Source of the DNA: Candidatus Spyradenecus sp.
GTDB lineage: Bacteria; Verrucomicrobiota; Verrucomicrobiia; Opitutales; UBA953
Length of the DNA: 64,000 nt
Reading direction: 5' to 3'
Assembly: GCA_045535075.1 (NCBI GenBank)
Contig: JAZSKX010000015.1
Coordinates: 75,994 to 139,993 of the forward strand
Shown here in pieces: positions 24,997 through 61,143 of this stretch; within the stretch, counting starts at the first letter, position 1, and every line of letters begins with the position of its first letter. A model generated the notes under the pieces. That model was not told the DNA's origin and did not search any database. It worked only from the letters and a program-made list of their open reading frames with translations. The position numbers were made by a program, and so were the translations under genes.

Positions 24997-25026
24997 GCGT
25001 TCCCGCGGCGAAAGTCGCGGGAACGC
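24997..25026 (+). terminator. Hairpin formed by an inverted pair of the RCGGGAACG motif
   Basis: GCGTTCCCGCGGC-GAAA-GTCGCGGGAACGC, 10 nt after the stop; no strong T tail. Confidence 0.55.
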
Positions 25027-25592
25027 CGTTGACTTACGCGGCAAACAATCTGAATCAATATACGGAAATTTGCTCGGCGGAGTTGATTCACCAGACGGAA
25101 ACGCCGTCGGCTCAGCCTTCAGCTTTCGTATGATGCTGACGGGAACGCGACTGTGGCGTTTTGGTGCGAACCTTTCAAAAATATGAAAAATTTATCGGAA
25201 GGGAGAATTCTTTCCGCTGTTGTTGACGTATATTCCCAGGAGAAATAGTCGCTTTCTTGTGCGAGACATTGCGTCCGGAAACCTCGTAAAAACCGGTGAT
25301 TATCCCTATGGTTCATATCACAAGGTTTTTATGAATGTTTTGATGCGTTGGTCGTAAAAATTATTGCGGGACGGTCTTTTTTCTGTCCATGGGAATTCTA
25401 CATCCGAAGCGAAAAGTGGATTAAGAAGAGACGTTTCTCTGAACTCAACCGAGCGGTCGATCTGTATTGTAGTAATCCTGATATCCGATTTCTTACTCCC
25501 ATGATTTGTGCTTTTTTTACCGCTTCTTTGCTAAATTTCAATTTGCGCGGGAACGCGGGAAGGCGTTTAATCAATCCTTAAAATTTTTTGTT

Positions 25593-28580
25593 ATGACATC
25601 CTCCGAAATTCGTCAGTCGTTTCTTGATTTCTTTAAATCGAAAGAGCACCAGATCGTGCCCTCGTCGAGCCTCATGCCGGACTCGCCGAACCTGCTTTTC
25701 ACGAATGCGGGAATGAACCAATTCGTGCCGATTTTCCTCGGGCAAATTCCTTGTCCGTATCCGACGCATCGCGCCGCAGACACGCAAAAATGCATTCGCG
25801 CCGGAGGCAAGCATAACGACCTCGAAGACGTCGGCATGGACACGTATCACCACACGTTTTTCGAAATGCTCGGAAACTGGTCTTACGGCAACTATTTCAA
25901 AAAAGAAGCCATTGCGTGGGCTTGGGAACTGATCACGGAGGTTTGGAAATTCCCGAAAGAACGCCTCTACGCGACCGTTTATTGCCCGGACAAATCCAAG
26001 GGCGATCCCGCCGAGTTTGACCAAGAAGCCTACGATGCGTGGGAAAAACTCTTCGTCGCCGCTGGGCTTGACCCGAAAGTCCATATCGTCAACGGCAACA
26101 AAAAAGACAATTTCTGGATGATGGGCGACACGGGTCCCTGCGGTCCGTGCTCGGAACTCCACATCGACCTTACGCCGAAGGGCGACACGGCGGGAACGCT
26201 CGTTAACGCCGGCTCGCCGCTTTGCATCGAAATCTGGAACCTCGTGTTCATGGAATTTAACGCGAATCCGGACGGCTCGTTTTCGCCGCTTCCCGCCAAG
26301 AACGTCGATACCGGAATGGGCTTTGAGCGCGCTGCGAGCATTATTCAATGCACGAAAAATTTCACTGATTTCACCGGCATCATTTCCAATTACGAAACGG
26401 ACATTTTTGCGCCGATTTTCCGCGAAATCGAAAAACTTTCCGGCAAAAAATACACATCCACGCTTCCCGCCGCGGGAACGCAGGGCGCAACCGAACAGGA
26501 AAAAATCGACATTGCCTTCCGCGTCATCGCTGACCACATTCGCACGCTTTCTTTTGCCATTGCCGACGGCATCGCTCCCGGCAACAGCGACCGCAACTAC
26601 GTTCTGCGCCGCATTTTGCGCCGCGCCGTCCGCTACGGGCGCACGCTCGGCTTCAAGGAACCGTTTTTCTACAAACTCGTCGACGTGCTCGCGGAAACGA
26701 TGGGCGATGTCTTCCCGGAAATCCGTTCCCGCCGCGAGTTCGTGCGCGACACGATTCGCGTCGAAGAAGAAGCGTTTAACAAAACGCTCGATGCCGGGCT
26801 GACGATTTTTGAAGAAATTATTGCGCTGAAAAATTCCGCCAAGGAATTGCGTATCGGAATCGCGGATACAATGAGCCTTTCCGAAGAAGCGCTCAAAGGC
26901 GGGAACGCAACACTCGCGAAAATCGCCGATCACATGGCTCTTAATATCGCGAAATTCGTTCTCGGCTTCGGCAAACCCGTCAACACTGAGCTTGCGCGCC
27001 GCATTTTCACGCGCTCCGATGTTAAAGCTCTTTACACGAGCGCGCACGCCGTGCTCAACGCGCCGGAAGATAAAGACGCGCTCGCGAATTTCCGGGGCAC
27101 GCTCGCAAACTTCCTCGCCGTCAGCACCGAGCTGAACGATGTTTTCAACGGAGAAGCGGCATTCCTGCTTTACGATACTTACGGATTTCCGCTCGACCTC
27201 ACCGACCTCATGGCGCGGGAACGCGGCTACACGGTGGACGAAAACGCGTTCAACACGCTTATGACCGAGCAGCGGGAACGCGCTCGCGCCGCGCAGAAAA
27301 AGCAGATCGTTACGCTTTCCGAAATCGAAACGAAGGACGCAACGGAATTTCTCGGCTACGAAACGCTTTCTGCCGAAGCGACGATTCTCGAAGTCGTTGA
27401 CAACAAAGGCAAAATCGCCGTCATTCTCGACCGCACGCCGTGCTACGCGGAAATGGGCGGGCAAGTCGGCGACACGGGAACACTTTCCGCGCGCGGCAAG
27501 GCTTGGAAAATCGTCAACACGCAAAAGAGCGGGAACGTGTTTCTGCATTTCGTCGAAGGCGCGGAACCGCCGCCCGTCGGCGCAAAAGCCGCCGTCGTTG
27601 TCGATGAAACACGCCGCCGCGCTATTGAGCGCAACCATACGGCGACACACCTTTTGCACTTTGCGCTTCACAGTGTTGTCGGCAAAGACGTGGCGCAAAA
27701 AGGTTCTTTCGTTTCCGACGAAAAACTGACCTTCGACTTTAATTCCGCCGCGCTCACGCCTGCGCAAGTTTCCGCCGTTGAAAAGAAAGTGAACGAACTC
27801 GTGCTCGCCAACAGCGGGATTTCCTGGACGGAAATTGCGCACGAACAGGCGAAGGAAAATGAAAATATTATCCAGTTCTTCGGCGATAAATACGGCGACG
27901 TTGTCCGCGTAATTCAGGTTGGCGGGAACGCGCACGCGCTCGACGGCTATTCGATGGAACTTTGCGGCGGCACGCACGCGCGCGCCACGGGCGAACTCGG
28001 GCTTTTCCGCATCGTCAGCGAAAGTGCGATTGCCGCCGGTGTGCGCCGAATTGAAGCTTGCACGGGAATGTCCGCTTACGCACACGGAGTCGAAGAAACG
28101 CAGTTGCTGAAAAAACTTTCCGAAAAAACGAAAACGCCGATTGCGGATTTGCAGAAGAAATTCGAAGCGCTCATGGAAGAAAAATCCGCGCTTGAAAAGC
28201 AACTCGCGGCGGTGCGCCAAAAGGAACTCGCGCAACTCGCAAACAAGCTTGTTGCCGAGGCGAAAGATACGGGAACGGCGAAGCAGGTCGCGGCGGTCGT
28301 TCCCGCAACTTCGCCGAACGATTTGCGCGAAATCGCTTCGCAGCTCGTGAAACAGCTCGGCGACAACGGCGTCGTCATTCTCGGTGCGGCACTCGCTCCG
28401 GATAAAGTTTCCGTCGTCGCCGCCTGCGCTCCCGCCGCCGTCAAATCCGGCGTTGCGGCGGGCAAAATCGTTTCCGCGCTCTGCGGCAAGCTCGGCGGCA
28501 AAGGCGGCGGAAAGCCGGACTTTGCGATGGGCGGCGGGAAAGACGCTTCCGCGCTTCCCGGCGTTTTCGCCGAGCTTTAA
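25593..28580 (+). CDS. alaS: Alanine--tRNA ligase (with an internal insertion)
   Basis: LLFTNAGM, HHTFFEMLGN, DTGMGFER, YDTYGFP, editing motifs HTATH and ELCGGTH, GKGGGK. Start at the ATG at 25593. Confidence 0.97.
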   Translation: MTSSEIRQSFLDFFKSKEHQIVPSSSLMPDSPNLLFTNAGMNQFVPIFLGQIPCPYPTHRAADTQKCIRAGGKHNDLEDVGMDTYHHTFFEMLGNWSYGNYFKKEAIAWAWELITEVWKFPKERLYATVYCPDKSKGDPAEFDQEAYDAWEKLFVAAGLDPKVHIVNGNKKDNFWMMGDTGPCGPCSELHIDLTPKGDTAGTLVNAGSPLCIEIWNLVFMEFNANPDGSFSPLPAKNVDTGMGFERAASIIQCTKNFTDFTGIISNYETDIFAPIFREIEKLSGKKYTSTLPAAGTQGATEQEKIDIAFRVIADHIRTLSFAIADGIAPGNSDRNYVLRRILRRAVRYGRTLGFKEPFFYKLVDVLAETMGDVFPEIRSRREFVRDTIRVEEEAFNKTLDAGLTIFEEIIALKNSAKELRIGIADTMSLSEEALKGGNATLAKIADHMALNIAKFVLGFGKPVNTELARRIFTRSDVKALYTSAHAVLNAPEDKDALANFRGTLANFLAVSTELNDVFNGEAAFLLYDTYGFPLDLTDLMARERGYTVDENAFNTLMTEQRERARAAQKKQIVTLSEIETKDATEFLGYETLSAEATILEVVDNKGKIAVILDRTPCYAEMGGQVGDTGTLSARGKAWKIVNTQKSGNVFLHFVEGAEPPPVGAKAAVVVDETRRRAIERNHTATHLLHFALHSVVGKDVAQKGSFVSDEKLTFDFNSAALTPAQVSAVEKKVNELVLANSGISWTEIAHEQAKENENIIQFFGDKYGDVVRVIQVGGNAHALDGYSMELCGGTHARATGELGLFRIVSESAIAAGVRRIEACTGMSAYAHGVEETQLLKKLSEKTKTPIADLQKKFEALMEEKSALEKQLAAVRQKELAQLANKLVAEAKDTGTAKQVAAVVPATSPNDLREIASQLVKQLGDNGVVILGAALAPDKVSVVAACAPAAVKSGVAAGKIVSALCGKLGGKGGGKPDFAMGGGKDASALPGVFAEL

Positions 28581-28675
28581 AGGAATTCCTACAAGTAGAG
28601 TTTTCGGGAGAGTAAAGAAGTCGTCGGTACCCGGTAATTGGGAATCGACGGCTTCTTTGCTTTCTTAAAAAGAAG

Positions 28676-28703
28676 CGTTCCCGCGGATCTCTCCACGGGA
28701 ACG
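28676..28703 (-). terminator. Motif-pair hairpin between convergent alaS and ilvD
   Basis: CGTTCCCGCGGA-TCTC-TCCACGGGAACG; CTTCTTTTT follows on the minus strand. Confidence 0.65.
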
Positions 28704-28706
28704 TAG

Positions 28707-28736
28707 TATCTAACACTAACTCTATCTAACACTAAC
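28707..28736. repeat. Tandem duplication of the 14-mer TATCTAACACTAAC
   Basis: Copies at 28707-28720 and 28723-28736. Confidence 0.8.
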
Positions 28737-28875
28737 ACATAAACAAATTTTTAAAACGTTCGTCTGAGCTTCTAAAAGTTTCAAACTAAGCGTTGTTTAA
28801 TTTCCTACTAATATAGTAGGAGAGTTGTAATTATGTCAAATAGTTTTTCGGTGTTTTTTATTTTTTTTTGAAATT

Positions 28876-30702
28876 TTATTCGACAATGCGGACGCCGCCT
28901 TTATCGGCAGAGGCGACCATTTTCGCGTAAGCGCGCAAGGCTTTGGAAATCTTGCGGTTGCGCGTTTTCGGAGTCCACGCTGCGTTCCCGCGGGATTCTT
29001 CTTCCCTGCGGCGAGCGGCGAGCTCTTCGTCGGAAACGCAAACGCGAATCGTGCGCGCGGGAATGTCGATTTCAATCAAATCGTTGTCGCGAATCAGTGC
29101 GACGTTCCCGCCCGCCGCCGCTTCCGGCGAAATGTGTCCGATGGAAAGCCCCGACGTGCCGCCGGAGAAACGTCCGTCCGTAATCAGTGCGCAGAGTTCG
29201 CCGAGGTGTTTCGATTTGATGTAAGACGTCGGGTAAAGCATTTCCTGCATGCCCGGGCCGCCGCGCGGACCTTCGTGCGTGATGACGACGACATCGCCCG
29301 GCCCAACCTTGCCGCCGAGAATGCCTTCGCACGCGTCGTCCTGCGATTCAAACACGCGCGCGGTGCCTTTGAATTTGAAAACCTTTTCGGAAACGCCCGC
29401 CGTTTTGACGATGCAACCGTCCTGCGCGATATTGCCGAAGAGCACGGCGAGCCCGCCGTCACGCACGTACGCGTGTTCGACATCGCGAATGCAACCGTTT
29501 GTGCGGTCTGTATCCAAATTTTCATAACGCGTTTCCTGCGAAGCCATTTCGATGTTGCGCGTTCCCGCGGGCGCGGCGTGAGCGCGTTCGAGCGCCTCGG
29601 AGGAGACGGTCGGCGAATCGATGTCGTTTTGTGCGATGGCTTCGGTAAGCGTCAGCCCGTCGGCGCGGTAAACGTTCCCGTCGATGAGTCCTTCGGCGGC
29701 GAGGCGTCCGATAATCGTCAGGATTCCGCCGGCGCGGTTCACGTCTTCGATGTGATATTTTTTTGTATTCGGCGCAACTTTACAAAGCACGGGAACGCGG
29801 CGGGAAAGGAAGTCGATGTCCTTCATCGTGAAATCCACGCCGGCTTCCTGCGCGATGGCGAGCAGGTGCAAGACCGTGTTGGTCGAGCCGCCCATGGCGA
29901 TATCGAGCGTCATCGCGTTCAGGAACGCGGCGCGCGTGGCGATTTGGCGCGGGAGCACGGTGGCGTCGCCTTTTTCGTAATACGCGTAAGCCATTTCGAC
30001 GATGCGCTTGGCGGCTTTTTCAAAAAGTTTCATGCGCTCTTTGTGCGTTGAAAGCACGGTACCGTTGCCGGGAAGCGCCATGCCGAGCACTTCGTTGAGG
30101 CAATTCATAGAATTTGCCGTAAACATGCCGGAGCAGGAGCCGCAAGTCGGGCACGCGAGGCGTTCGAGCTCGGCGAGTTTTTCGTCGGAATATGATTCGT
30201 CCGCGCCCTTGACCATGACGTCGATCAGGTCGTATTTTTCGCCTTCGAAATCGCCGGCTTCCATCGGTCCGCCGGAAACGAAAATCGCGGGAATATTCAG
30301 GCGCATTGCCGCCATGAGCATGCCGGGCGTAACTTTGTCGCAGTTGGAAATGCAAACGATAGCGTCCACGCGGTGCGCGTTGCACATGTATTCGACGGAG
30401 TCGGCGATGAGGTCGCGCGACGGGAGCGAGTAAAGCATGCCGTCGTGCCCCATGGCGATGCCGTCGTCGATGGCGATGGTGTTAAATTCTGCGGCGAAGC
30501 AACCTTGCGCTTCGATGAGCGCTTTCATCTGTTGCCCGATTTTGTGCAAATGCGTGTGTCCGGGAACGAACTGCGTGAATGAATTGACGATACCGATAAT
30601 CGGCTTGCCGAGTTGTTCTTCTTTCATGCCGTTGGCGCGCCAAAGTGCGCGCGCGCCCGCCATGCGGCGACCTTCCGTGCTGAGTGAACTGCGAAATTTC
30701 AT
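28876..30702 (-). CDS. ilvD: Dihydroxy-acid dehydratase
   Basis: [40 protein letters not shown]. Confidence 0.97.
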
Positions 30703-30786
30703 AGTGAGGCGAAATTCTACGCGCGTTCCCGCGGGAACGCAAAGCGTTTGTTTTTGAATTTTTGGGGAGTCGGGGGAAGGGAATTT

Positions 30787-31410
30787 TTATTCCCAGATGA
30801 ATTGGTGTTCCCGTGAGAGCCAGGATTCGAGGCGGTGGACGTAGTGCGCGATATCCCGGGAATCGACGCAAAGTTGCTCTAGAGGCGTTTTTAAAACGGC
30901 GGCGATGCCTTCGCGGTCTTCAAAGCAGGAGTTTTCAAACCAATCTTCCCGAACGGGATAGCCGTTGTCGCGGGCGAGCGTCCAAAGCGCCTTGAGATAG
31001 GTTGCGTCCGGATTGGGTTTTTCTCCGAATGCGCGGAATACATTTTCGCTTAATCGGTAAATTCCGGCGTGCGAATCCGGCGGGAACGTATTTTTTGCCA
31101 GAAGCGACGCAAATTTGCTGGCGCAGACCAAAGCGCTGTAATTTCCGGAAATTCCGACGTTTCGGCGGACAAGGCGATATTCTTTCGCAAACCGCAACGT
31201 CGAATCCGTTCCCGCCTTCGGTTTATCCAAAAGGATTTCCGCTTCGTCGAAAAGATCCGGGACACAGGTGGTTTTGTTCTTGCCTGCAATGCGCACCAAA
31301 CAAGGCTGCGCGCCGTATTCTCGAGTGAGAATGACGACGCGCCAGAATTTTTCTCCTTGAACAATCCTATCGAGGATGAATCCGGAAAATAATTTTGCCT
31401 TTTCGGGCAT
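30787..31410 (-). CDS. recO: DNA repair protein RecO-like
   Basis: N-terminal OB-fold-like pattern (GFILDR..GE...VILTREYG) plus a helical domain; short and divergent. Confidence 0.6.
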   Translation of the reverse strand: MPEKAKLFSGFILDRIVQGEKFWRVVILTREYGAQPCLVRIAGKNKTTCVPDLFDEAEILLDKPKAGTDSTLRFAKEYRLVRRNVGISGNYSALVCASKFASLLAKNTFPPDSHAGIYRLSENVFRAFGEKPNPDATYLKALWTLARDNGYPVREDWFENSCFEDREGIAAVLKTPLEQLCVDSRDIAHYVHRLESWLSREHQFIWE

Positions 31411-32969
31411 TATTTTGCCTTGCGAACTTCGTCCGCCGGAATGCTGAGGAAGAAGAGCGTTTGCGAGTCCGGAGAACCTTCGTAGAGAACGCCGATGCGC
31501 TGATTTTTATCATCGGCAAACGCAAGTGTCGAGTACCCGGCACAACGGCGTTCGTCGTAAAGCAATCCGTCCGACCACGTTTTTCCGCCGTCTTTCGAGT
31601 ATTTCAGCGTCATGTTATTGCGTACACCGGAATTCGGGTTTGAGAAGAAAAGATTTTTCCCGTCAGCGGTGAGTAACGCCGCTTGGCACAAGTTGCCGGG
31701 TTGGCGAAGCTTTTCTCCGTCGAATTTTTTCCAGGTTTCGCCCATGTCCTTCGTGGTGGCAACGATGCGTTCTCCCGGGGAGCCTTGGCGAACGTTCAGC
31801 ATAATCGAGCCGTCTTTGAGCTGGACGCAGGTCGACTCGGATCCGCCCCACGGCATTGCCTTCGAGGACGTCCAGGTTTTTCCGCCGTCTTTGGAATAAA
31901 CAAGCACGCCTTTAACGCCTTTGCCTTTGTGCCCCCAAATTTGCGACGGGAAAATCAACGTTCCGTCTTTCGTGCAGATTCCGGCTCCCGGACCTTGGAA
32001 GACTAATCCCCAATCCTGAGTATCGGAATCCTGAAGGCGCTTGATTTCGGAAGTGATGTTTATCGGTTTGCTCCAGCTTTTCCCGTCGTTGTCGGAAGAA
32101 ATAAGCACCATTTGTCCGCAATTTTGCGGCGAGTCCGTTCCCGTGGAGCTTGTCCAGATCGGGTGTCCGCTTTGCGGCGCCCAAAGTGCGGAAATCCAAA
32201 TTTTCCCGGTTTTATCGTCAACGAGGATTCCCGGATCGCCGATACCTTTTTTCACTTCCATGTTTTTCGAGGAAAGAACGGATTCCACGGGCGACCACGT
32301 TTTTCCGCCGTCGGTCGATCGGCTGACGCCGACATCAATGTTTGCGGGAAGGTCGCCGGCGTGATTGTAGCGAATGTCGAAAGTTGCAATCAGTGTTCCC
32401 GTCTTCGGATTTCGCGCAATTGCGGGAATGCGGTAGTTTTTGGATTTCAAGTCACCGGCTTTCGCAACCGCGTAGCCGATGCGTTGTTCGGTTTTGGCGC
32501 CTTTGATGGCTTGCTTGCGCGCGTTGACCGTGGCACCTGTTGCCGCAAGGACAATTTTGCCTTCGATGTCCGCATTTTTCTTCATCGTGACGCTGACCCA
32601 AATATCATTGGCGCCGTGTTCGAGTTTCTTGCGCCCGACTACCGTAACTTTCGGAGCTCCCGTGACTTTCGCCGAGCCGAATTTTTCGCCGACCTTGCCG
32701 ACGGAGTTCCCGCCGAAATAGACATCGATACTCGCGATGTCGGAAATTTTTGTCGTTCCCGTGAGATTAAATTCAATGCCGGTGAGCGTTTCGCCGTCTG
32801 CCTGCATTTTAAGATTCATGACGGGATTGTAATCCATGCGTACCATGACGGGCCAGACGTTGGTGGCGGCGGTTGTGTCAACGGCGGCAAGCGCGTTTGC
32901 GGCTCCTGCGAGGCAAAGTGCGGCAAGCGCAATTTTAGCTAGGACGGATGAGATTCGGGTAAGCTTCAT
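31410..32969 (-). CDS. Exo-alpha-sialidase (GH33), secreted
   Basis: Signal peptide; YRIP motif; several Asp-boxes (STDGGKTW, SDNDGKSW, SKDGGKTW); GYST. Confidence 0.92.
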   Translation of the reverse strand: MKLTRISSVLAKIALAALCLAGAANALAAVDTTAATNVWPVMVRMDYNPVMNLKMQADGETLTGIEFNLTGTTKISDIASIDVYFGGNSVGKVGEKFGSAKVTGAPKVTVVGRKKLEHGANDIWVSVTMKKNADIEGKIVLAATGATVNARKQAIKGAKTEQRIGYAVAKAGDLKSKNYRIPAIARNPKTGTLIATFDIRYNHAGDLPANIDVGVSRSTDGGKTWSPVESVLSSKNMEVKKGIGDPGILVDDKTGKIWISALWAPQSGHPIWTSSTGTDSPQNCGQMVLISSDNDGKSWSKPINITSEIKRLQDSDTQDWGLVFQGPGAGICTKDGTLIFPSQIWGHKGKGVKGVLVYSKDGGKTWTSSKAMPWGGSESTCVQLKDGSIMLNVRQGSPGERIVATTKDMGETWKKFDGEKLRQPGNLCQAALLTADGKNLFFSNPNSGVRNNMTLKYSKDGGKTWSDGLLYDERRCAGYSTLAFADDKNQRIGVLYEGSPDSQTLFFLSIPADEVRKAK

Positions 32970-33015
32970 AGTAGTCTTAATCTGCCTTAAAACGTGTTTC
33001 GGGGAAAGTAAAATT

Positions 33016-34636: not shown

Positions 34637-34767
34637 ATATTTTTTTGTTGCCGACGTTTTTCGAAAGCGTCGTTCCCGTGTTTGTTTTGAATTAGACTTT
34701 GTCGGATAAAGGCGCTTTTCCCGGCGAATGAATTGTGTTAAGTTGCGTGCTGTTTTATCTCAAGGCT

Positions 34768-36477: not shown

Positions 36478-36543
36478 ATTCGCTTTAATTTTTATTTTTA
36501 AACTCTTAAGCTTTTCGAAACTGTTCTTTGTCAGCCCAAATCC

Positions 36544-36764
36544 TTCCGTTCGGCGCGAGGGAATGCCGTGAAAATCGGCAACAGACGCGCTGCGGTAACG
36601 AATGACTTTTTTCCGCGAGCTGCCGCAAACGGGCGGGCAGTCTCGAAAAGCCAGTGAAAATCTTGCGACAAGCCTTCGGGATGTCGGAATTTTTGCGAAG
36701 GCGGAAAGAGGGCGAATCGCTTGTCGGTTCATAGTTCGAAGTCCGAATATCTTGCTGAGCGGAA
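36544..36764 (+). promoter_or_regulatory. Cobalamin riboswitch
   Basis: AGGGAATGCCGTGAAAATCGGCAACAG..GCTGCGGTAA, AAGCCAGTG, GCGAAGGC and a B12-box-like AAGTCCGAATATCTTGC. Closing helix TTCCGTTCGGC/GCTGAGCGGAA. Directly upstream of a TonB-dependent receptor. Confidence 0.85.
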
Positions 36765-36870
36765 TTAACGGGCGTGGCGTCCACAGAGCGCTTCGCCTCT
36801 TCACGCGTATAAAATGAAGTCAAAAAAAATCTCAACGGCGGCGGGAACGCTTGTTTCCTTCCGTCTTTCA

Positions 36871-38814: not shown

Positions 38815-38828
38815 TCCGGATAAATAAG

Positions 38829-38866
38829 GAACCCGTTCCCGCAAAACGCGGGAACGGGTTCTTTTA
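38829..38866 (+). terminator. Motif-pair terminator between convergent btuB and sod
   Basis: GAACCCGTTCCCGC-AAAAC-GCGGGAACGGGTTC-TTTT. Confidence 0.85.
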
Positions 38867-41955: not shown

Positions 41956-41995
41956 AAAAAACGTTCCCGTGAATTATTCCACGGGAACGTTTTTT
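41956..41995. terminator. Bidirectional motif-pair terminator at the end of glgP
   Basis: AAAAAACGTTCCCGTG-AATTATTC-CACGGGAACGTTTTTT. Confidence 0.85.
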
Positions 41996-44728: not shown

Positions 44729-44759
44729 AACGTTCCCGCAGCTTTCCTGCGGGAACGTT
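44729..44759 (-). terminator. Motif-pair terminator after rplT
   Basis: AACGTTCCCGCAG-CTTTC-CTGCGGGAACGTT preceded by an A run (T tail on the minus strand). Confidence 0.8.
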
Positions 44760-46784: not shown

Positions 46785-47423
46785 ATGGAGTCGTTTAAGA
46801 AAATTTCCGTCGAAACTTGGGAACGGCGGGAACTGTTTCGATTTTATCAAAAATTTTCGAGCCCGAATTACAATGTCTCCGTGTCGTTGGATGCGTCGAC
46901 GCTTTATCGCTTCGCGCGGGAACAGGGACATTCGTTTTTTCTGCTGACTTGCTATGCGATTGCGCGGGCACTTAATGCCGTTCCCGAAATGCGCCGGCGT
47001 TTTGTCGATGAGAACACGGTTGCCGAATACGAAATAATCCATCCTTCGTGTCCGCTGGCACGGGAAGGGAGCGACCTTTTTGTTCAGGTGCTGCTCCCGT
47101 ACAAATCGAGCTTTTCCGCATTTCGGGAAACGGCTCAGCCGATTATTGATGCCGTACGAATCGGAAAAATCACAGAAAGCGATTTCAACGAAACCCCGAA
47201 TCTTTTTTGCGCTTCTTGCGTGCCGTGGTTCGAATCCTTGGGCGTGGCTTCCGCCGAGTATTCCCGCAATCAGGCGGAACAAATTATTACTTGGTTTAAA
47301 ATGAGCGAGGCGGGAAAAATGACGGTTTCCGGACGCTTCAATCACACTTTCACCGACGGCATTCATCTGGGCCGCTTTTTCAACGGAATTCAGGAAAATT
47401 TCCTAAATCCGGAAAAGCTCTAG
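46785..47423 (+). CDS. CatA-like O-acetyltransferase (chloramphenicol acetyltransferase family)
   Basis: W.RRE.F.FY, SCVPW, NHTFTDGIHLGRF (HxxxDG catalytic motif). Confidence 0.85.
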   Translation: MESFKKISVETWERRELFRFYQKFSSPNYNVSVSLDASTLYRFAREQGHSFFLLTCYAIARALNAVPEMRRRFVDENTVAEYEIIHPSCPLAREGSDLFVQVLLPYKSSFSAFRETAQPIIDAVRIGKITESDFNETPNLFCASCVPWFESLGVASAEYSRNQAEQIITWFKMSEAGKMTVSGRFNHTFTDGIHLGRFFNGIQENFLNPEKL

Positions 47424-47829: not shown

Positions 47830-47970
47830 CGTTTCCCCGATAGAGTTTCGGGAATAGTGTAAATGTTGAGGCAATCGTGCAATGAAATAAGGAACCGCCG
47901 CAAATTCTTGCCTTTACGTACAAATCCGTAACCGCAAGGACGATGAGATTGTCGTTCCCGCAAAAAAAAC

Positions 47971-47997
47971 GTTCCCGCGAGAAAATCTCACGGGAAC
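47971..47997 (-). terminator. Motif-pair hairpin downstream of dapB
   Basis: GTTCCCGCGAGA-AAA-TCTCACGGGAAC with an A run just 5' of it. Confidence 0.7.
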
Positions 47998-48020
47998 ACA
48001 CGTCTCAAGCGTACAAAAAA

Positions 48021-53632: not shown

Positions 53633-53965
53633 TTTTAGGGAGAGGCTACTGATTCAAAACGCGAGCTTAAAAGGCGTATTTAATTTTGCTTTCTGATTTA
53701 TTGTAGCAAAATCTTTTGACAATTTGAACTGCGGAGCTACAAAGCTCTCTAAAAAAACGTTTTTGAGGGAATCAATGAGAGTTGAGGACTGAGAGCTTAG
53801 AGGAAAATGCGTTCCCGCAATCGGAAAAAGGATTTCGAAAACCTTTTTCGTGAAGCGAGCTGCAAATATCTATCATCTCTCGGTTCTCCTCGCCCAGCAG
53901 GAACTCCATTAGAGTTCCCTTAAGTTATAAACATTTTAAAAATTCTCTCTTTGCGGAGACTTTAT

Positions 53966-54424
53966 TCAGAAAAAAAGTCCGTTGCGGCGCGCGGCAAGAT
54001 CTGCGAGACGGAAGACGGCGGCGGCGAAAAAAGCGAGCAGGGCGACGAGGAGGCTTCCCACGACGACGGCTACGTTTTCCTGAGGGCTTGGAAGAATCGG
54101 TGAGGTGCAGGCTGCGACGGCAAAAACCGTTGCGTTGAGCGCGGTGAGGACTCCGGAGGTTCCGCTGAAAAGCGCCAAAAATCCGTAAATGCTCGAGCGC
54201 GCGGGAACGGATTGCTGAGTGGAGCTTGCAATCGGTTGTGATTTTGCTTCTGCGGGATTTTGTTGCTCGACGGCGTTCCCGTCGGCTCCGGGCGCGCTTA
54301 GAATTTCGTCTAAATCGGGGACGGCGATAATTGCATTGCAACGGCAACGGAAGCGCCTGCCGATATATTCGTTTCCGGCGTTGTATTTCTCATGGCACTG
54401 AGGGCATTGAATTTTTATGCTCAT
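53966..54424 (-). CDS. Zinc-ribbon membrane protein
   Basis: CPQC...CRC at the N-terminus and two hydrophobic helices. Confidence 0.65.
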   Translation of the reverse strand: MSIKIQCPQCHEKYNAGNEYIGRRFRCRCNAIIAVPDLDEILSAPGADGNAVEQQNPAEAKSQPIASSTQQSVPARSSIYGFLALFSGTSGVLTALNATVFAVAACTSPILPSPQENVAVVVGSLLVALLAFFAAAVFRLADLAARRNGLFF

Positions 54425-54562
54425 CCTAACAATTGGAGAAATTCTTTTCGCGTCTTGCCGTTCCCGCAAGTTTTTTTATTCGGCAAAATTTGCGCGTTGC
54501 ATTTTGGCGGGAACGCGAGGAAAATTTCGGGACTTACAAACAACGAACCTCCTTAATACAAC

Positions 54563-55594
54563 ATGAAAGCGCTCGTAAAAAAAGAAGCAAAACCCGGCCT
54601 CTGGCTGATGGACGTTCCCGAACCCGTTTGCGGTCCGGATGATGTTTTGATTCGTATCAAAAAAACCGCCATCTGCGGAACCGATGTGCATATTTACAAG
54701 TGGGACGAGTGGTCGCAGAAGACCATTCCCGTGCCGATGACGGTCGGACACGAATACGTCGGACACATCGAAAAAGTCGGCGAAAACATCCGCCACCTCA
54801 AGGTCGGACAACGCGTTTCCGGCGAAGGACACATCGTTTGCGGCTACTGCCGTAACTGCCGCGCCGGGCGCCGCCATCTTTGCCCGAACACGCAAGGCGT
54901 CGGCGTCAACCGCGCGGGAGCGTTCGCCGAATTGCTCGCGATTCCCGCCAAAAACGTCGTGCCGCTCGCCGATGATATTCCGGACGACATCGCCGCAATC
55001 CTTGACCCGCTCGGGAACGCCGCGCACACCGCACTTTCCTTCAACCTCGTCGGCGAAGACGTGCTCATTACCGGCGCGGGACCGATCGGCATCATGGCAA
55101 TCGCCCTCGCCAAAGCCGCGGGAGCGCGCTACGTCGTCATTACCGACGTCAACGACACGCGCCTTGCGCTCGCACGCAAAATGGGCCCGACGCTCGCCGT
55201 CAACACGATGCAAACTTCGCTCAAGGACGTGATGGCTCAACTCGGCATGACGGAAGGCTTCGACGTCGGTTGCGAAATGTCCGGCAATATTCACGCGCTC
55301 AACGGCATGCTCGAAGTCATGTCCTGCGGCGGCCGCATCGCTCAGCTCGGCATTCCTCCCGGGAACGCGGCGATCGACATGAGCAAATTCATCTTCAAAG
55401 GCTTGACGATGAAAGGTATCTACGGTCGCGAAATGTTCGAAACTTGGTACAAAATGATGGCGCTGATTCAGGCGGGCATGGACGTTTCGCCGATTATCAC
55501 GCACCATCTCCGCTACGATGAATTTGAAAAAGGCTTCGAAGCCATGCTCAACGGCACGGCGGGTAAAGTCATTCTCGATTGGTCGAATATTTAA
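54563..55594 (+). CDS. tdh: L-threonine 3-dehydrogenase
   Basis: [41 protein letters not shown]. Confidence 0.96.
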
Positions 55595-55676
55595 CGGAAG
55601 AATGGAGAAGCGGAGGAAATCTCTCGGCAACGCCATTTCCTGAACCGGCTTCTCCGGTCTCTGAGCTTCGGCTAAT

Positions 55677-55716
55677 AAAACCGTTCCCGTGGTTAATTTC
55701 GCGGGAACGGTTTTTT
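55677..55716 (+). terminator. Motif-pair terminator after tdh
   Basis: AAAACCGTTCCCGTG-GTTAATTT-CGCGGGAACGGTTTTTT. Confidence 0.85.
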
Positions 55717-55930
55717 ATATGCGAGTTTTTCTTCGTGGCGCGCGGCGTTTCGCATTGTTCTCCGGGGCATTATTCGTTTCGCGCGGGATTCTGTTCGAGC
55801 TTCCGTTGGGCGCCATTTCTAAGCACTTCAGCTTTCTCGGCTTTTGAGCTTCTGGATTCGGCTTCCGGTTCTTGAGATTTTTTTGTTCCAAGGGCGGGAG
55901 CGGCTGTGTCATGATTGGCGTTTTAAAAGT

Positions 55931-57841
55931 ATGCTTGAGCAGTTTTTTTCTCTTTTGGATTCGGCGCGCGGGATCGCCGTCATTGTTCTTTTTTTCGGCG
56001 GTTCAATTTTTGTTCATGAGCTGGGGCATTTCCTCGCGGCAAAATGGCGCGGCTTGCGTGTTGAGCGTTTTTCAATCGGCTTCGGACCGAAAGTCTTCGG
56101 TTGGACGGGAAAGGATGGCGTTGACTACCGCATCTCGCTTTTGCCTTTGGGCGGTTATGTTGCGATTCCGGAGCTTGCGGATATGGAGCTTATCGAGGGA
56201 AAATCCTCGCAAAATTCGGAGGCGGACGGCGTTCCCGCGAAGAAAATTTCTTATACGGATAAGGTGATTGTCTTTGCCGCGGGAGCATTTTTTAACATTT
56301 TGTTTGCGTTCGTATTGGCGTGTGTTTTGTGGCTTATCAAAAGCCCGACGCACGAAGGCTATGATTCGTCCGTGATCGGTTATGTCGCAAAGGAAATTGA
56401 GCCGGAAGCCGGCGTTCTTGTTCCCGGACCGGCTTGGGAAGCGGGATTGCGCGCGGGAGACCGGATTCTTGCGATTGACGGAGAGGCGACCGAAAGTTTC
56501 GATGAAATTACTCAAGCAATTGCGCTCGGCACGCAACGCAGTGAAGACGGACGTCCGATGGCGAATCTGACGATTGCCCGCGGGAACGCTGTTTTGGAAA
56601 AACAGGTTTTCCCGTGCCTAGTCTCGCACAATCCGCGTAGTGGGGATTTTATTCGTATGATCGGCATTGCGCCGACGGATTCGCTGGTGGTGGCTCCGAT
56701 GGAAAATTCCCCGGCGGCGGAGGCCGGCGTGCGCTACGGCGACCGATGGACGGAAATTGCCGTCGGAGATTCGGGGGCTTGGAAGCCGCTTTACTCCTTT
56801 GCGGAATTTCGCGAAATTATTGACGAAAGCGTTAGAGGAAACGATGCCGTTCCCGTGCGTGTCCGCTATGTGCGCGGCGACGGGAAGCCGGAAGTCTTGA
56901 GCATGCTTCCGAAGCTGCTTCCGGTAAAAAACGAATCGGCGTTTATTCGTTTTTCGGAAGGCGGGAAAGAGCGCGTTTTGCGCCTTATCGCGGCGCCGGA
57001 AGATTTGTCGAATACAGCCTTGCGGGCGAAGCGCAATACGTTGCGCGTGCTTGAAGGCGTTCCTGTCGATTCGGCTTATGCGGATATTTTCAGAGCGGGA
57101 ACGCTCATCGACGGTATTGCCGAAGCGGGCGAGGGAATTGTCGCGCCGAAAACGCCGGATGAACTGAAAAAAGCGTTTCCGGAGGAAACCCCGCGCGAAG
57201 TTTCGATTTTTGTTACGACTCCTGACGGAGAAGGCGGGAACACGCGTTTCTCGGGTGCGGTACTAGGGCTCAATCCGGAGCTCATACAGCCGTTTCTCGG
57301 CGTGGTGCTTGTTCAGGAAGAGCGCTTGGTGCGCAAGTCGCCATGGGCGCAGTTCGACGACGCGATCGGGATTACGTTTAAATCGATCGGCGGCTTGCTG
57401 AACCCGAATTCGGACATCGGAATCTCGCATCTGAACGGCGTTTTTTCTATCGGAGATACTTATTACGCGATTTCGTCAAATTTGCGCAGCGTGCTTGTCC
57501 TGACGGTCCTGATTAACATCAATCTCGCGATTCTGAATCTGCTTCCCGTTCCCGTGCTCGACGGCGGGCATATTCTGATTGCGACGATTCAGCGCCTGCG
57601 CCGCCGCCCGATTCCGTTGCAGATTATCAACGGCGTTCAGCTCGTTTTCATTTGTCTGCTGTTTCTGTTTATGGGCTTTGTCCTGTTTAAAGACTTTGTG
57701 CGTTTTCGCGGGAATCGAGACATCGAGGCAAGCCGGCAAATTGCGCGCTTTCAATATACGCCGGAATTTCTTGCGCTGACGGATTCAAAATTGCTGATTG
57801 CGGGAACGCAGGAGAAATCCGCGTCTGGGGAAGAAAAGTAA
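55931..57841 (+). CDS. rseP: RIP metalloprotease RseP (M50, with PDZ domains)
   Basis: HELGH, FSIGFGP, LPLGGYV, NLLPVPVLDGGH. Confidence 0.93.
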   Translation: MLEQFFSLLDSARGIAVIVLFFGGSIFVHELGHFLAAKWRGLRVERFSIGFGPKVFGWTGKDGVDYRISLLPLGGYVAIPELADMELIEGKSSQNSEADGVPAKKISYTDKVIVFAAGAFFNILFAFVLACVLWLIKSPTHEGYDSSVIGYVAKEIEPEAGVLVPGPAWEAGLRAGDRILAIDGEATESFDEITQAIALGTQRSEDGRPMANLTIARGNAVLEKQVFPCLVSHNPRSGDFIRMIGIAPTDSLVVAPMENSPAAEAGVRYGDRWTEIAVGDSGAWKPLYSFAEFREIIDESVRGNDAVPVRVRYVRGDGKPEVLSMLPKLLPVKNESAFIRFSEGGKERVLRLIAAPEDLSNTALRAKRNTLRVLEGVPVDSAYADIFRAGTLIDGIAEAGEGIVAPKTPDELKKAFPEETPREVSIFVTTPDGEGGNTRFSGAVLGLNPELIQPFLGVVLVQEERLVRKSPWAQFDDAIGITFKSIGGLLNPNSDIGISHLNGVFSIGDTYYAISSNLRSVLVLTVLININLAILNLLPVPVLDGGHILIATIQRLRRRPIPLQIINGVQLVFICLLFLFMGFVLFKDFVRFRGNRDIEASRQIARFQYTPEFLALTDSKLLIAGTQEKSASGEEK

Positions 57842-57857
57842 TTTTTGTAATTACATT

Positions 57858-59195
57858 ATGGCTGAAATTATTCTGATTATTGTTGGAATTCTTGTTGTTG
57901 TTGCCTTAGTTATCGCAAACGGATTTTTCGTTGCGGCGGAATTCGCGCTTGTGAAAGTGCGCCCGACGCAGCTGCATCCGCTGGAAAAAGACGGCGGTAT
58001 TCGCGTGAAGGCGGCGCTCCGGGCGACCAAACATCTCGACGGCGTTTTGTCTGCAACTCAGCTCGGAATTACACTCGCATCGCTTGCGCTTGGATGGGTA
58101 GGAGAACCGATTGTCGCTCACAAAATCGTAGAGCCGCTTTTGGGGCATTTCGGGATTACGGACGCGGGAACGATCACGACGGTTTCCTTTGCCGTTGCTT
58201 TCGCCATTATCACGTTTCTCCATATCGTTTTCGGAGAACTCGCACCGAAGTCGCTTGCAATTCAATACCCGATGGCGACTTCGCTCAATGTCGCCGTCCC
58301 GCTGATTATTTTTCATAAAATCTTCTTTCCCTTTATTTGGGCGCTCAACGGTACGGCGAATTTCTTTTTGCGGCGCGTGGGAATTCATCCCGCCGGAGAG
58401 GGCTCTCACGCCATTTCCAAAGACGAAATGGAATACGTGCTTTCGCATTCCCGCCCGGCTTCCGACGATGTTTTGATTGACCGCATTTTAATTCGTTCGC
58501 TACGCCTGCGCGATACGCGCGTCAACGAAGTGATGATCCCGCGCGACGAAATCAATGCTCTTTGGAGCAAGGTCGCGGGAACGGAAAATCTGCGAACGGC
58601 GCAACGAACCGGGCACTCGCGCTATCCGGTTTTTGACGGCGACTTGGACAAACCTGTCGGTATTTTGCTGACGCGCGAATGGCTTTGGCAAATCCAGTTG
58701 CTCGGCGAAGATACGCCGATCGAGCCGCTGTTGCGGGACGTGATGATTTTCCCGCCGGACATGGCGCTTGCCGATGCTTTGGAGCGCTTCCGCCAATCGC
58801 AAAATCACATTGCTCTTGTCGTCAACGCAGAAGGACGCACGCTGGGACTCGTCAGTTTTGAAGACGTACTCGAAGAAATCGTCGGCGACATTCGTGACGA
58901 ATTCGATACCGATAAGAAGGAAATTTTTGAACAAACGGAAGATTCCATTATCGTCGCGGGAACGCTCAATATGCACGAACTTGAGGCGGAAACCGGTTGG
59001 AATTTCGAATGGGACGGAAACAGCTATGAAACCGTCGCGAGCTGGGTTCGCTCGCTTTGTCCCGGGCGCCCGCCGAAGCGCGGCGAAACCTTGCGCTACG
59101 AAGACGTGGAAGTCATTCCGCTCGAAACGCCAGCAGGCTCGCTCAAGCGTATTTTGCTTCGTCGCGTTTGGGAGGGAAGCAAAGAAGAAATTTAA
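57858..59195 (+). CDS. HlyC/CorC (CNNM-CBS) family transporter
   Basis: NGFFVAAEFALV, QLGITLASL, GELAPK, HSRYPV, EDVLEEIVG. Confidence 0.93.
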   Translation: MAEIILIIVGILVVVALVIANGFFVAAEFALVKVRPTQLHPLEKDGGIRVKAALRATKHLDGVLSATQLGITLASLALGWVGEPIVAHKIVEPLLGHFGITDAGTITTVSFAVAFAIITFLHIVFGELAPKSLAIQYPMATSLNVAVPLIIFHKIFFPFIWALNGTANFFLRRVGIHPAGEGSHAISKDEMEYVLSHSRPASDDVLIDRILIRSLRLRDTRVNEVMIPRDEINALWSKVAGTENLRTAQRTGHSRYPVFDGDLDKPVGILLTREWLWQIQLLGEDTPIEPLLRDVMIFPPDMALADALERFRQSQNHIALVVNAEGRTLGLVSFEDVLEEIVGDIRDEFDTDKKEIFEQTEDSIIVAGTLNMHELEAETGWNFEWDGNSYETVASWVRSLCPGRPPKRGETLRYEDVEVIPLETPAGSLKRILLRRVWEGSKEEI

Positions 59196-59261
59196 AAACG
59201 CGATTTTTTGCAAGAATGGTTTAATTTAACAGTTAGCGAGTTTTTCGCCTTGTGTAAAACT

Positions 59262-59459
59262 AAGGGCACGATTGAGGAAATCTCAGTCATGCCCTTTCGT
59301 TCTTTTCAAGTTTTGTGCGTCGAAAACACAAACAAAAGCGGCGACCGAAAGTCGAGAAACTTCAGTTCGTCCTGGTGATTCTTCAAATCATCGAGGCGAT
59401 TCTGAAGCTCCTCACCCGGTGGGTGACCGCCCGGGTCTTGAAAAGAGCGTTAAGGGTAT
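59262..59459 (+). other. Structured element encoding a basic-amphipathic short peptide (type I toxin-like), in frame with miaB
   Basis: 5' hairpin at 59262-59296; 59289-59310 is complementary to 59437-59459; GTG start at 59315. Confidence 0.5.
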
Positions 59460-59587
59460 TTCCTACTTTTGTTCGCCGAAGTCAATCTGAACCCGGCATC
59501 GGAATTGCGACGGCGACGCGTAACATGACTTGCAACGGAAATTCTTTATCGCACTCCGGCAATCTTTTCGAGAAAATCACGCGTTTT

Positions 59588-60967
59588 ATGAATCGGGTTT
59601 ATATTAAGACTTACGGTTGCCAGATGAACGAGCGCGACAGCGAGGCAGTTGTGGAAATGTTGCGCGGGCGCGGTTATTCCATCGTCGATAACGAGTTCGA
59701 CGCCGACATCATTTTACTGAACACCTGTAGTGTGCGCGACCAAGCCGAGCAAAAAGCCATCGGCAAGGCGTATCGCCTGCTCCCGAGCCGGAAAAAACGC
59801 GCCAAAGACGCAGACAAAGGCATTCCCGCGGACGGAAAAAAACGCATCGTCGGGATCATGGGTTGCATGGCGCAAAATCGCGGGCGCGCCTTGCTCGACC
59901 AGCTTCCCGATTTGGATTTGATTGTCGGAACGCAAAAATTTCACCGCGTTCCCGAGCATTTGGACAAACTGCTTGCGACAATGCGCGGGCTCGGTCCGAA
60001 GCCGTCGTCCATCGTCGATTTAGACGAAGAAGCCGGCTCGCAAAACACGATTTCGCAGCACACGCCGGGACGCAAAATTTCCGCCTTCGTTTCGATTATG
60101 CAGGGCTGCGACATGCGTTGCGCGTATTGCATCGTACCGAAAACTCGCGGACACGAGCGCGCGCGTCCGATTGACGACATCGTCGCGGAAGTCGAAGAAC
60201 TTGTCGCTGCGGGAACGCGCGAAGTGATGCTTCTCGGGCAAATTGTGAATCGCTACGGCATTCGCGAGTTCCCGACGATTAACGGCAAGTCTCCGTTTGT
60301 TCAGTTGCTCGAACGGTTGCATGCGATTGAGGGCTTGGAGCGCATTCGTTTCACGTCGCCGCATCCGGTCGGCTTCCGTGAAGATTTGGTCGACGCGTAT
60401 CGCCGTTTGCCGAAGCTTTGCAGTTATATTCATCTTCCCGCGCAGAGCGGTTCGGACAAAATTTTGAAAGCGATGCGCCGTCCGTATTCGCGGGAACGCT
60501 TTATTGAGCTTGTGAATGCGTTGCGCGCAGCTCGTCCGGGCATTTATCTTTCGACGGATGTCATCGTCGGCTTCCCCGGCGAAACGGAAGAGGATTTTGA
60601 GCTTACGCGTTCGCTTTTCGAGGAAGTCAAATTCGACATGGCGTTTATTTTCCGCTACAGCGTGCGCGCGGGAACGCCGGCGGAGGCGCTCGGCGACCCG
60701 ATTTCCGAGGAAATCAAAGACGCGCGCAACAAGGAGCTCCTCGCCGTTTTGGAAAAACATTCGCTCGCGCGCAACGAATCGCTCGTCGGAACGATTCAGG
60801 ACGTTTTGGTCGAAGCACCCGCCAAACGCGGCGAAAATATTTTCCAAGGGCGCAACGACGGCGACCGCAAAGTCGTTTTCAAGGGCGACGAATCGTTGCT
60901 CGGAAAAATCGTCCGCGTGCGCATTGATTCCGCGACCGTCACCACGCTCACGGGAACGTTGGTTTAA
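59588..60967 (+). CDS. miaB: tRNA-2-methylthio-N6-dimethylallyladenosine synthase
   Basis: TYGCQMNERDS, NTCSVR, CDMRCAYC radical-SAM motif, TRAM domain. Start at the ATG at 59588. Confidence 0.96.
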   Translation: MNRVYIKTYGCQMNERDSEAVVEMLRGRGYSIVDNEFDADIILLNTCSVRDQAEQKAIGKAYRLLPSRKKRAKDADKGIPADGKKRIVGIMGCMAQNRGRALLDQLPDLDLIVGTQKFHRVPEHLDKLLATMRGLGPKPSSIVDLDEEAGSQNTISQHTPGRKISAFVSIMQGCDMRCAYCIVPKTRGHERARPIDDIVAEVEELVAAGTREVMLLGQIVNRYGIREFPTINGKSPFVQLLERLHAIEGLERIRFTSPHPVGFREDLVDAYRRLPKLCSYIHLPAQSGSDKILKAMRRPYSRERFIELVNALRAARPGIYLSTDVIVGFPGETEEDFELTRSLFEEVKFDMAFIFRYSVRAGTPAEALGDPISEEIKDARNKELLAVLEKHSLARNESLVGTIQDVLVEAPAKRGENIFQGRNDGDRKVVFKGDESLLGKIVRVRIDSATVTTLTGTLV

Positions 60968-61105
60968 TCGCCTTCAAAAAACAGCGTACAATCCTCAAGT
61001 TCTATCATCTCAATGAAAAACATTCCTTCCGATTTTATGGCGGTAGTGAAGAAGCAAAAGAATATCTGAGGACTATCGGAGGATTGTAATTTTTTTATTA
61101 AATGC

Positions 61106-61143
61106 AAAAAGCGTTCCCGCGAAATTTCACGGGAACGCTTTTT
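61106..61143. terminator. Bidirectional motif-pair terminator (miaB/lpxD)
   Basis: AAAAAGCGTTCCCGC-GAAATTTC-ACGGGAACGCTTTTT. Confidence 0.85.

Follow-up and report, generated by a model that had tools for sequence, protein, structure and literature searches.

Uptake words whose inverted pairs serve as terminator stems are described, in the portions of the literature drawn on here, for the Neisseriaceae and the Pasteurellaceae only. In Neisseriaceae, inverted pairs of the DUS GCCGTCTGAA are enriched between convergent genes, occur in one favoured order and carry a T-tail along the gene direction, and about 55% of high-confidence terminators include a DUS (PMC1852404). Such pairs were found in every DUS dialect (PMC3630211), RNA 3′ ends were associated with DUS-type motifs (PMC13714241), and the order of the pairs was attributed to the A/T flanks of the extended motif (PMC1852404). 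In Pasteurellaceae, paired copies of the USS AAGTGCGGT form terminator hairpins whose spacer peaks mirror the extended motif; USS are contained in 17–29% of terminators, have long extended flanks and show a weaker order bias (PMC1852404), and most inverted-repeat USS copies fall in predicted terminators (bioRxiv 10.1101/2025.10.24.684340). It was also pointed out that G-U versus C-A pairing makes the two strands of a terminator differ (PMC1852404).

In the 64-kb window, i.e. the whole stretch of DNA that was analysed here, the 8-mer CGGGAACG was found as 196 exact, dispersed copies between positions 1445 and 63660 (96 and 100 per strand). Genome-wide, 5,159 copies were counted in 1.95 Mb, in which both strands were about equally used (2,527 and 2,632) and 4,349 copies were located in coding DNA, and the longest word-free gaps corresponded to low-GC, phage-like and ribosomal-protein DNA. 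The word is non-palindromic, has the extended consensus YYRCGGGAACG(C), in which the extension beyond the core amounts to 3 nt, and is not identical to the DUS or the USS as given in PMC1852404. It was enriched in all 19 genomes of the genus (552–7,777 copies each), and none of the other 42 genomes searched, with at most 493 copies each, was enriched to this degree; within this set, the word is confined to one related group, the genus. It resembles the DUS in being an abundant non-palindromic word with pairs in convergent gaps, one order and a tail along the gene direction, but it is unrelated in sequence and belongs to another phylum (the nearest named TyrRS relatives of the host were Opitutales/Opitutae). 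Our preferred reading, to which we give a probability of roughly 0.55, is that terminator stems are made from this genome-saturating word, which would be kept up separately at the DNA level, likely by biased uptake.

A sequence-only reading of the window had placed eight inverted pairs of the word, in the order CGTTCCCG…CGGGAACG, at gene ends. All eight were present at those gene ends and in that order (we give core coordinates, from which the earlier ones, referring to the extended stem, were offset by 0–6 nt), and the gene names trkH, ilvD, dapB, tdh and lpxD were borne out, with the trkH match under the curated cut-off. The same reading had held that mismatched arms form a G·U pair on the strand of an adjacent terminating gene; the sites it listed were correct (plus strand at 24998 and 55682, minus strand at 28676, 47970 and 61112), but a minus-strand G·U at 41962 was missing from its list.

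The plus-strand pair at 24998–25025, located 12 nt after the trkH-like gene, has one plus-strand G·U and a GAAA loop, and its folding energy with flanks was −27.8 kcal/mol on the plus and −23.5 kcal/mol on the minus strand. Since no U-tract was found on either side of this hairpin, it is the weakest terminator among the eight, and we predict that it either terminates weakly or atypically or stabilises the 3′ end as a hairpin. The other plus-strand pair (55682–55709), 88 nt after tdh, has two G·U pairs and a U-tract on that strand. On the minus strand, the pair at 28676–28703 lies between the convergent alaS and ilvD genes with a U-tract and a U·G wobble on the ilvD strand, that at 44731–44757 lies 30 nt after rplT with a minus-strand U-tract, and that at 47970–47998 lies 131 nt after dapB with two U·G pairs and a U-tract, its right arm being CGGGAACA, a single-letter difference from the word. 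The pair at 38834–38856, whose stem reaches to about 38826–38864 and whose first inner pair is Watson-Crick, separates the genes for a TonB-dependent receptor and superoxide dismutase and is a predicted bidirectional terminator. Two-sided tracts were observed at 41962–41989, between the convergent M42 peptidase and glycogen phosphorylase genes, and at 61112–61137, between the convergent miaB and lpxD genes, where the pair sits 20 nt past the lpxD stop and has a U·G on the minus (lpxD) strand. The window also contains pairs away from gene ends at 12360 and 36234 (both in coding DNA), a pair of opposite order at 28270 and zero-spacer palindromes of the word at 30724, 45534 and 46561. One RNA contig of low depth ends 53 nt short of the tdh hairpin and is uninformative as to termination.

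Pairs with spacers of 4–22 nt were then counted genome-wide, with 1,511 of the 1,588 called genes kept. Exact pairs in the order CGTTCCCG…CGGGAACG numbered 164 (58 convergent, 85 same-direction, 2 divergent and 19 coding), and those in the opposite order 27, of which 7 were intergenic; the intergenic order bias was thus 145 vs 7, where random placement gave 13–15 intergenic pairs per order with a maximum of 26. A pair was present in 54 of the 151 convergent gaps of at least 30 nt, in 82 of the 694 same-direction gaps and in 2 of the 196 divergent gaps, and every one of the 19 genomes of the genus showed a significant order bias. In same-direction gaps, pairs were located at a median of 26 nt past the stop codon (within 60 nt in 75 of 85), and a sense-side U-tract (at least 5 T in 9 nt) accompanied 80 of the 85, vs an antisense-side one in 38. 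Their mean folding energy was −17.5 kcal/mol on the sense strand vs −15.3 kcal/mol on the antisense strand, the lower value belonging to the sense strand in 62 and to the antisense strand in 19 of the 85. The proposal that many terminators are inverted pairs of the word with one polarity, enriched at 3′ ends, was therefore upheld at the scale of the genome. About half of the predicted terminators in the genus, whose members are uncultured gut bacteria, are hairpins of two facing word copies, and it is very likely, judging from these predictions, that the facing pairs act as intrinsic (Rho-independent) terminators. They share with ordinary intrinsic terminators the GC-rich stem, short loop, U-tract and position past the stop codon, but differ in that the stem is one fixed word, conserved beyond the needs of pairing.

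Word hairpins formed the top of the lists in a general terminator scan, which at a loose setting gave no excess over shuffles (44 vs 42.5; 46 vs 40.4). Rfam families were not found at the word-pair hairpins; the Rfam search returned one cobalamin riboswitch, located away from them. Tail-like flanks were rejected as the source of the fixed order, as unpaired copies had a slight T excess only. On the side of the tail, no pronounced A/T flank was seen at unpaired copies, unlike in Neisseria, where such flanks are taken to explain the pair order. GGG was generally favoured in the 3′ arm, but too weakly (24:10) to account for the pair order.

Of the 148 intergenic pairs with spacers of 0–20 nt, 53 had a spacer of 12 nt, a sharp peak that would also suit DNA sites of a dimeric protein in a 20-bp register, and the 24998 site without a U-tract would suit an RNA stability or processing hairpin. 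That the pairs are such sites or hairpins instead of terminators is nevertheless very unlikely, since an 11-nt extended word with a loop would yield the 12-nt peak, spacers from 6 to 15 nt are all represented, and sense-side U-tracts, strand-specific G·U and exclusion from divergent gaps would be left unaccounted for. A spacer peak reflecting the extended word, like paired copies that form predicted terminator hairpins, is shared with the USS; the differences are the 3-nt extension, the 145:7 order bias and the share of about half of predicted terminators observed here.

Selection on the word pairs as RNA hairpins, which the sequence-only reading had suggested, is supported by strand-specific G·U, by lower folding energy and U-tracts on the sense side, by inner pairs 2 and 3, which covary, and by compensated hairpins in a lineage losing the word. 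The wobble strand followed gene direction, with G·U accepted on the transcribed strand in preference to C·A: at inner pair 1, G·U fell on the transcribed strand in 41 cases vs 7 on the other strand, and inner pairs 1–3 pooled gave 70:19. Stretches of seven other genomes gave 16:1 (inner pair 1) and 31:4. Unpaired word copies had no strand bias (28/128 vs 24/132, p 0.54), and neither the intergenic nor the third-codon ones showed a general strand asymmetry, so transcription-linked mutation in general was rejected as the source of the wobble bias. The two arms covaried at inner pair 2 (odds ratio 9.0) and inner pair 3 (odds ratio 4.6) but not at inner pair 1 (odds ratio 1.3, p 0.79). At the latter, 49 of 78 pairs had T on the 5′ side, compared with about 20% of unpaired copies, independently of the partner base. 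The commonest wobble site is thus a 5′-arm U excess without covariation, which alone is no proof of selection on pairing. In models of the inner pairs, 5′-arm extra U alone (AIC 598.7) fitted equally well as two forces (AIC 600.0), and a model in which each arm is driven independently and one blind to strand were rejected for poor fit (AIC 667 and 627, respectively, vs 599–602). Wobbles occurred in 36 of the 58 convergent pairs, each being a C·A mismatch in one of the two transcripts, and convergent sites were strand-neutral.

A more local mutational origin of the bias was also considered, namely C-to-T mutation of the exposed non-template strand within hairpins, together with copying of founder hairpins. 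The partner-independent T excess at inner pair 1 would be expected from it, as would the T-rich loops on the sense strand (200 T vs 112 A). Copying is indicated by inner sequences that are mutually more alike than column shuffles, by word hairpins that are copies of one another and by certain hairpins that occur together with a longer repeat or with the ends of PEP-CTERM-like genes; template switching can perfect palindromes without selection. We judge this origin very unlikely, because the unpaired copies are strand-symmetric, inner pairs 2 and 3 covary, and C-deamination cannot yield A>G wobbles, which are found among the one-sided core transitions (sense G·U 30 vs 13; within these A>G 8 vs T>C 2). 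The bias moreover remained after look-alike hairpins were collapsed (23:6 and 13:3), and unrelated terminators without the word were biased alike (33:9; 44:9 pooled, with a stricter filter). This last result marks the strand preference of G·U as something that terminators ordinarily show, and neither the wobble bias nor the order bias is unusual in itself.

In a close relative with fourfold lower word density (G013), hairpins were kept with the word altered, some being fully compensated: G013 had 33 exact pairs and 22 degenerate ones, 7 of the latter with full compensation, vs 134 exact and 30 degenerate pairs (7 with full compensation) in G000 (p 0.0017). Hairpins there outlast the word, indicating that RNA pairing and word upkeep are separate forces and that termination, whose function outlives the word, does not maintain it. 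Upkeep of the word at the DNA level, apart from pairing, thus appears highly probable. The top-ranking words in 258 kb of G013 included no changed dialect. Set apart from the 15 word-rich genomes of the genus are G001, G002, G013 and G014, and the decay affects two branches. As causes of word decay in G001, G013 and G014, loss of competence genes was rejected (ComEC, DprA, pilins and pilus ATPases were retained) and so was loss of the short pilin C5:99026, for which no loss was found.

In the preferred reading, RNA polymerase would transcribe the word pair, the RNA would fold into an 11–12 bp stem with a 4–6 nt loop, and the U-tract would then free the transcript. Two selections would overlap on the same letters, RNA pairing acting on arm complementarity and the word's own drive on the exact 8-nt core, so that wobbles would gather at the degenerate R position of the word beside the loop; once the drive had been relaxed, as may have happened in G013, the hairpin would be retained and the word would drift. 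The drive itself may be a putative competence receptor that prefers word-bearing DNA.

The pairs might also be terminators made of a word that is kept intracellularly, as a Chi-like signal, by HIP1-like methylation-linked repair or by a nucleoid protein, and Chi and HIP1 are likewise short words over-represented through genes. This alternative, possible in our view but doubtful, draws on three observations: ComEA was not found in G000; competence genes fail to track the presence or decay of the word, ComEC occurring throughout the genus (19 of 19 genomes), its word-losing lineages included, and also in a sister genus that lacks the word (3 of 3 genomes); and the word density of 2.6–4.5 per kb across the word-rich genomes exceeds that of DUS and USS. 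Other observations speak against it. Chi in enterobacteria is strongly polarised to replication, whereas here the G-rich strand carries only about 54% of copies (2,090 of 3,857, seven long contigs summed by hand). HIP1 of cyanobacteria is palindromic and linked to a methylase; the present word is no palindrome, and no genus-wide methylase was found in the two families searched, PF00145 (10 of 19 genomes) and PF01555 (16 of 19, absent in G000). Ends of exchanged tracts lay within 10 nt of a word in 4 of 58 and 4 of 65 cases where 5% was expected, which speaks against upkeep as a recombination signal, and the word was rejected as a recombination junction.

With regard to uptake, DprA, pilins and pilus ATPases were found in all five genomes examined, and six pilin-like genes were among the matches listed. 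Whole housekeeping genes of G000 and G016 were about 98% identical, vs a median protein identity of 77%; no recent exchange was seen between G000 and the word-rich G018 (0 of 125 orthologs). Word density was 2.9 per kb in the G016-exchanged genes vs 2.6 per kb, which was not significant (p 0.26). By analogy with DUS and USS, we lean towards a role of the word in sequence-biased uptake. The parallel drawn in the sequence-only reading, a dual use like that of DUS/USS pairs, presupposes this role. More tentatively, the word may belong to a third uptake-sequence system that evolved independently of the other two, is found in Verrucomicrobiota and lacks a recognisable ComEA, with the word in half of the terminators, gene swaps across species and some lineages switching off.

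A parallel case in another phylum, if this is one, would show that abundant self-tags are recruited into terminator stems each time they evolve. Relatives with full and with quarter word density make RNA-level and DNA-level selection separable on the same nucleotides, which bears on the open debate of whether uptake sequences accumulate by molecular drive or via other jobs. Were the uptake system real, species 23% apart in protein sequence could exchange whole housekeeping genes, and lineages losing the word would leave behind terminators that drift away from it through compensated changes.

All eight facing pairs of the word that the sequence-only reading had reported in the order CGTTCCCG…CGGGAACG were found in the window, at most 6 nt from where it had put them, and the strands it had named for their wobbles were recovered. 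They lie at 24998 (flanked by a trkH-like gene), 28676 (alaS/ilvD), 38834 (TonB receptor and superoxide dismutase genes), 41962 (M42 peptidase and glycogen phosphorylase genes), 44731 (rplT), 47970 (dapB), 55682 (tdh) and 61112 (miaB/lpxD). Their description as terminators held for the hairpin, which is present at all eight, and failed in one respect at 24998, where the hairpin has no U-tract. The feature seen in the window is real. There are 196 copies of the word in the window and 5,159 in the whole 1.95-Mb genome, divided evenly between the two strands. The nearest named relatives of the TyrRS of this genome are Opitutales/Opitutae (80% identity), and a feces-labelled sequencing run contains long stretches ~98–99% identical to the genome. 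Zero-spacer palindromes of the word were also observed at 30724, 45534 and 46561 (13 genome-wide, exceeding the counts at neighbouring spacers). The window further carries a cobalamin riboswitch (RF00174, 34.5 bits, 36516–36771, plus strand) ahead of a TonB-dependent receptor gene, and a CatA-like O-acetyltransferase gene (46785–47423, plus strand; score under curated cut-offs) immediately 3′ of tyrS.

Genes were called with a custom codon model (1,588 genes, 1,511 kept for pair counts), so that gene ends are approximate. Exact copies with a spacer of 4–22 nt formed 164 pairs in the reported order (85 same-direction, 58 convergent, 2 divergent and 19 coding), against 27 the other way round, of which 7 were intergenic. 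When the 799 intergenic copies were placed at random, 13–15 pairs per order arose (maximum 26). Both orders were equally represented in coding DNA (23 vs 19, spacers 0–20). The fixed polarity proposed from the window extends genome-wide and is significant in 19/19 genomes of the genus, and outside the genus pairs were present in just 2/42 genomes, one pair each. Location at 3′ ends likewise held, the 85 same-direction pairs lying a median of 26 nt past the stop codon, with a U-tract on the sense side in 80/85 and on the other side in 38/85. A strand-symmetric hairpin search over 1,026 gene ends, in which convergent gaps were counted once per direction, predicted 265 terminators, 133 of them with both word arms; only about 5% of all word copies sit in such pairs.

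The strand of the wobbles was evaluated in the 85 same-direction pairs, where gene context alone sets the transcribed strand. At inner pair 1, the stem base pair just inside the word core on the loop side, we counted U·G 41, C·A 7, C-G 22, U-A 8 and other 7 (p = 6e-7), a non-random relation to gene direction (41:7), as had been claimed. The bias toward the transcribed strand was 70:19 for inner pairs 1–3 summed and 33:7 in the 75 pairs at most 60 nt from a stop. Folding was better on the sense strand for 62/85 hairpins and on the antisense strand for 19/85, and convergent pairs were evenly split (27:28 of 58). Unpaired copies, used as a control, showed no strand asymmetry, whether they were intergenic or scored at the third position of codons. 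The bias remained after look-alike hairpins were merged (23:6 in 80 clusters, 13:3 in 47 clusters), and it recurred in fetched stretches of seven other genomes (16:1 at inner pair 1, 31:4 at inner pairs 1–3). Word-free terminators are equally biased (33:9), so the wobble bias marks terminators in general. Inner pair 1 by itself speaks against the simplest interpretation: C·A was not below the expectation from the unpaired background, U in the 5′ arm was enriched (49/78 vs ~20%), and no covariation was found (p = 0.79). The counts were fitted equally well by a model with a sixfold penalty on C·A, where a single good copy is enough for the drive of the word (AIC 600.0), and by plain U enrichment (AIC 598.7). 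Selection for pairing shows more cleanly at inner pairs 2 and 3, which covary (odds ratios 9.0 and 4.6; U-tract pairs pooled from eight genomes), and in the one-sided core transitions of the same set (sense G·U 30 vs 13, among them A>G 8 vs T>C 2). The earlier proposal that selection acts on these pairs as RNA hairpins is thus well supported by strand-specific wobble, folding, covariation and core transitions.

As for the single order, the favoured order of the Neisseria DNA uptake sequence (DUS) places A/T flanks in the tails, according to PMC1852404. Here, in contrast, the tail character of unpaired copies is slight; their loop-side extension is YYR, which accounts for the 12-nt spacer peak (3 + 6 + 3). 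Word-free terminators show a slight preference for GGG in the 3′ arm (24:10), and hairpins are at times copied from locus to locus; our guess is that the one order comes from a mix of this preference and such copying. Genes whose tails we take to be PEP-CTERM-like share their 3′ ends and the next terminator, so the hairpin was copied along with the gene end (contigs C5: 51142, 53172, 63879, 106128, 153722; C9: 33441, 57074; C8: 242524; C11: 107328; C1: 128718). Clusters of a ~170-nt repeat, presumably REP-like by its look, with alternating orientation, internal palindromes and the word inside, were observed at C1:128600–129450 and C8:242400–243650. In intergenic DNA of the related genomes G013 and G010 and of the genome under study (G000), terminators are often preceded by short, tandem-like stretches of the type AGATTAAAG / GCTTAAAG, which is among the top 10-mers of G013.

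Word density is ~0.66 per kb in three genomes (G001, G002, G013) vs 2.65 in G000. Because more distant genomes are word-rich, we infer a probable secondary decay in these three. A second word-poor branch is represented by G014 (0.29 per kb), and the remaining 15 genomes have 2.6–4.5 copies per kb. G013 is the closest sampled relative of G000 (median protein identity 88.5%), and in 1.0 Mb of its 2.1 Mb we found 33 exact and 22 degenerate U-tract pairs, 7 of the 22 altered in both arms yet fully complementary; G000 had 134 exact and 30 degenerate (7 such; p = 0.0017 vs G013), and word-rich G010 had 22 and 6 (1 such) in 0.4 Mb. Compensated arms can also arise by template switching. Downstream of orthologs of G000 exact-pair genes, G013 had 12 exact hairpins and 17 drifted ones, 7 sites of another kind and 20 without a hairpin (n = 56); in G010, which is more distant, the corresponding numbers were 8, 2, 0 and 11 (n = 21; exact vs drifted between the two, p = 0.065). 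About 10% of the copies left in the three decayed genomes lie in pairs, vs 1.4–5.3% in others. The hairpin outlives the word, so termination is very probably not what maintains the word, and the upkeep of the word is very probably due to a separate force acting on the sequence. G001, G013 and G014 have an additional pilus/T2SS ATPase and a larger number of pilin-like genes than G000 or G009.

DNA uptake is the force that we consider most probable (roughly 0.55–0.6). The word is distributed like DUS and the Pasteurellaceae uptake signal sequence (USS), and its longest gaps fall in low-GC, phage-like and ribosomal-protein DNA. ComEC was detected in every one of the 19 genomes of the genus, and 5/5 genomes had DprA, pilins and pilus ATPases. 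Against uptake, ComEA was not found in the whole G000 genome by PF12836 or TIGR00426, the best match lying within an 805-codon frame under the TIGR00426 cut-off, and ComEC also occurs in word-free genera and in decaying lineages. In favour of uptake, recent exchange with G000 (fourfold-site identity of at least 0.8) was found for 26/101 orthologs of word-rich G016 and 13/219 of G010, but for just 5/573 of the closer, decayed G013. Against uptake again, word-rich G018, G009 and G008 showed none (0/125, 0/16 and 0/28), so that shared habitat may explain the pattern, and the genes exchanged with G016 were not word-richer than others. Upkeep from within the cell is the less probable alternative: Chi-like polarity is weak (about 54%), tract ends neither shun nor prefer any site, which speaks against a recombination junction, and the two methylase families examined are both patchy across the genus.

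Judged from sequence comparison, the species of G016 and G000 seem to have exchanged genes recently and on a large scale. In G016 C11:1–200000, 29 tracts made up 19.5% of the sampled DNA (median identity 98.5%), mostly single housekeeping genes from start to stop at unlinked places; median protein identity is 77%, and fourfold-site identity was at least 0.9 in 24/101 orthologs and 0.6–0.9 in only 3. LpxD (window 61157–62197) is 99–100% identical in G016 and G007, with unrelated DNA past the stop. ilvD (window 28876–30702), with six word copies inside, has 98% DNA identity with G016, and its relatives outside the genus (~70% identity) were mostly Bacteroidota and Desulfobulbaceae among the matches listed.

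Compared with DUS and USS, as described in PMC1852404, PMC3630211, bioRxiv 10.1101/2025.10.24.684340 and PMC13714241, the pairs work alike in predicted terminators, whereas the sequence of the word belongs to neither family; by this likeness the word is a candidate uptake sequence, with the odds slightly in its favour. Among the papers listed by literature searches, which did not cover most subscription journals, none dealt with the word or with Verrucomicrobiota uptake sequences. Neither the wobble bias nor the order bias is out of the ordinary; what makes the case interesting is that the word is undescribed and belongs to a different phylum, and that its relatives allow two selective forces to be told apart.
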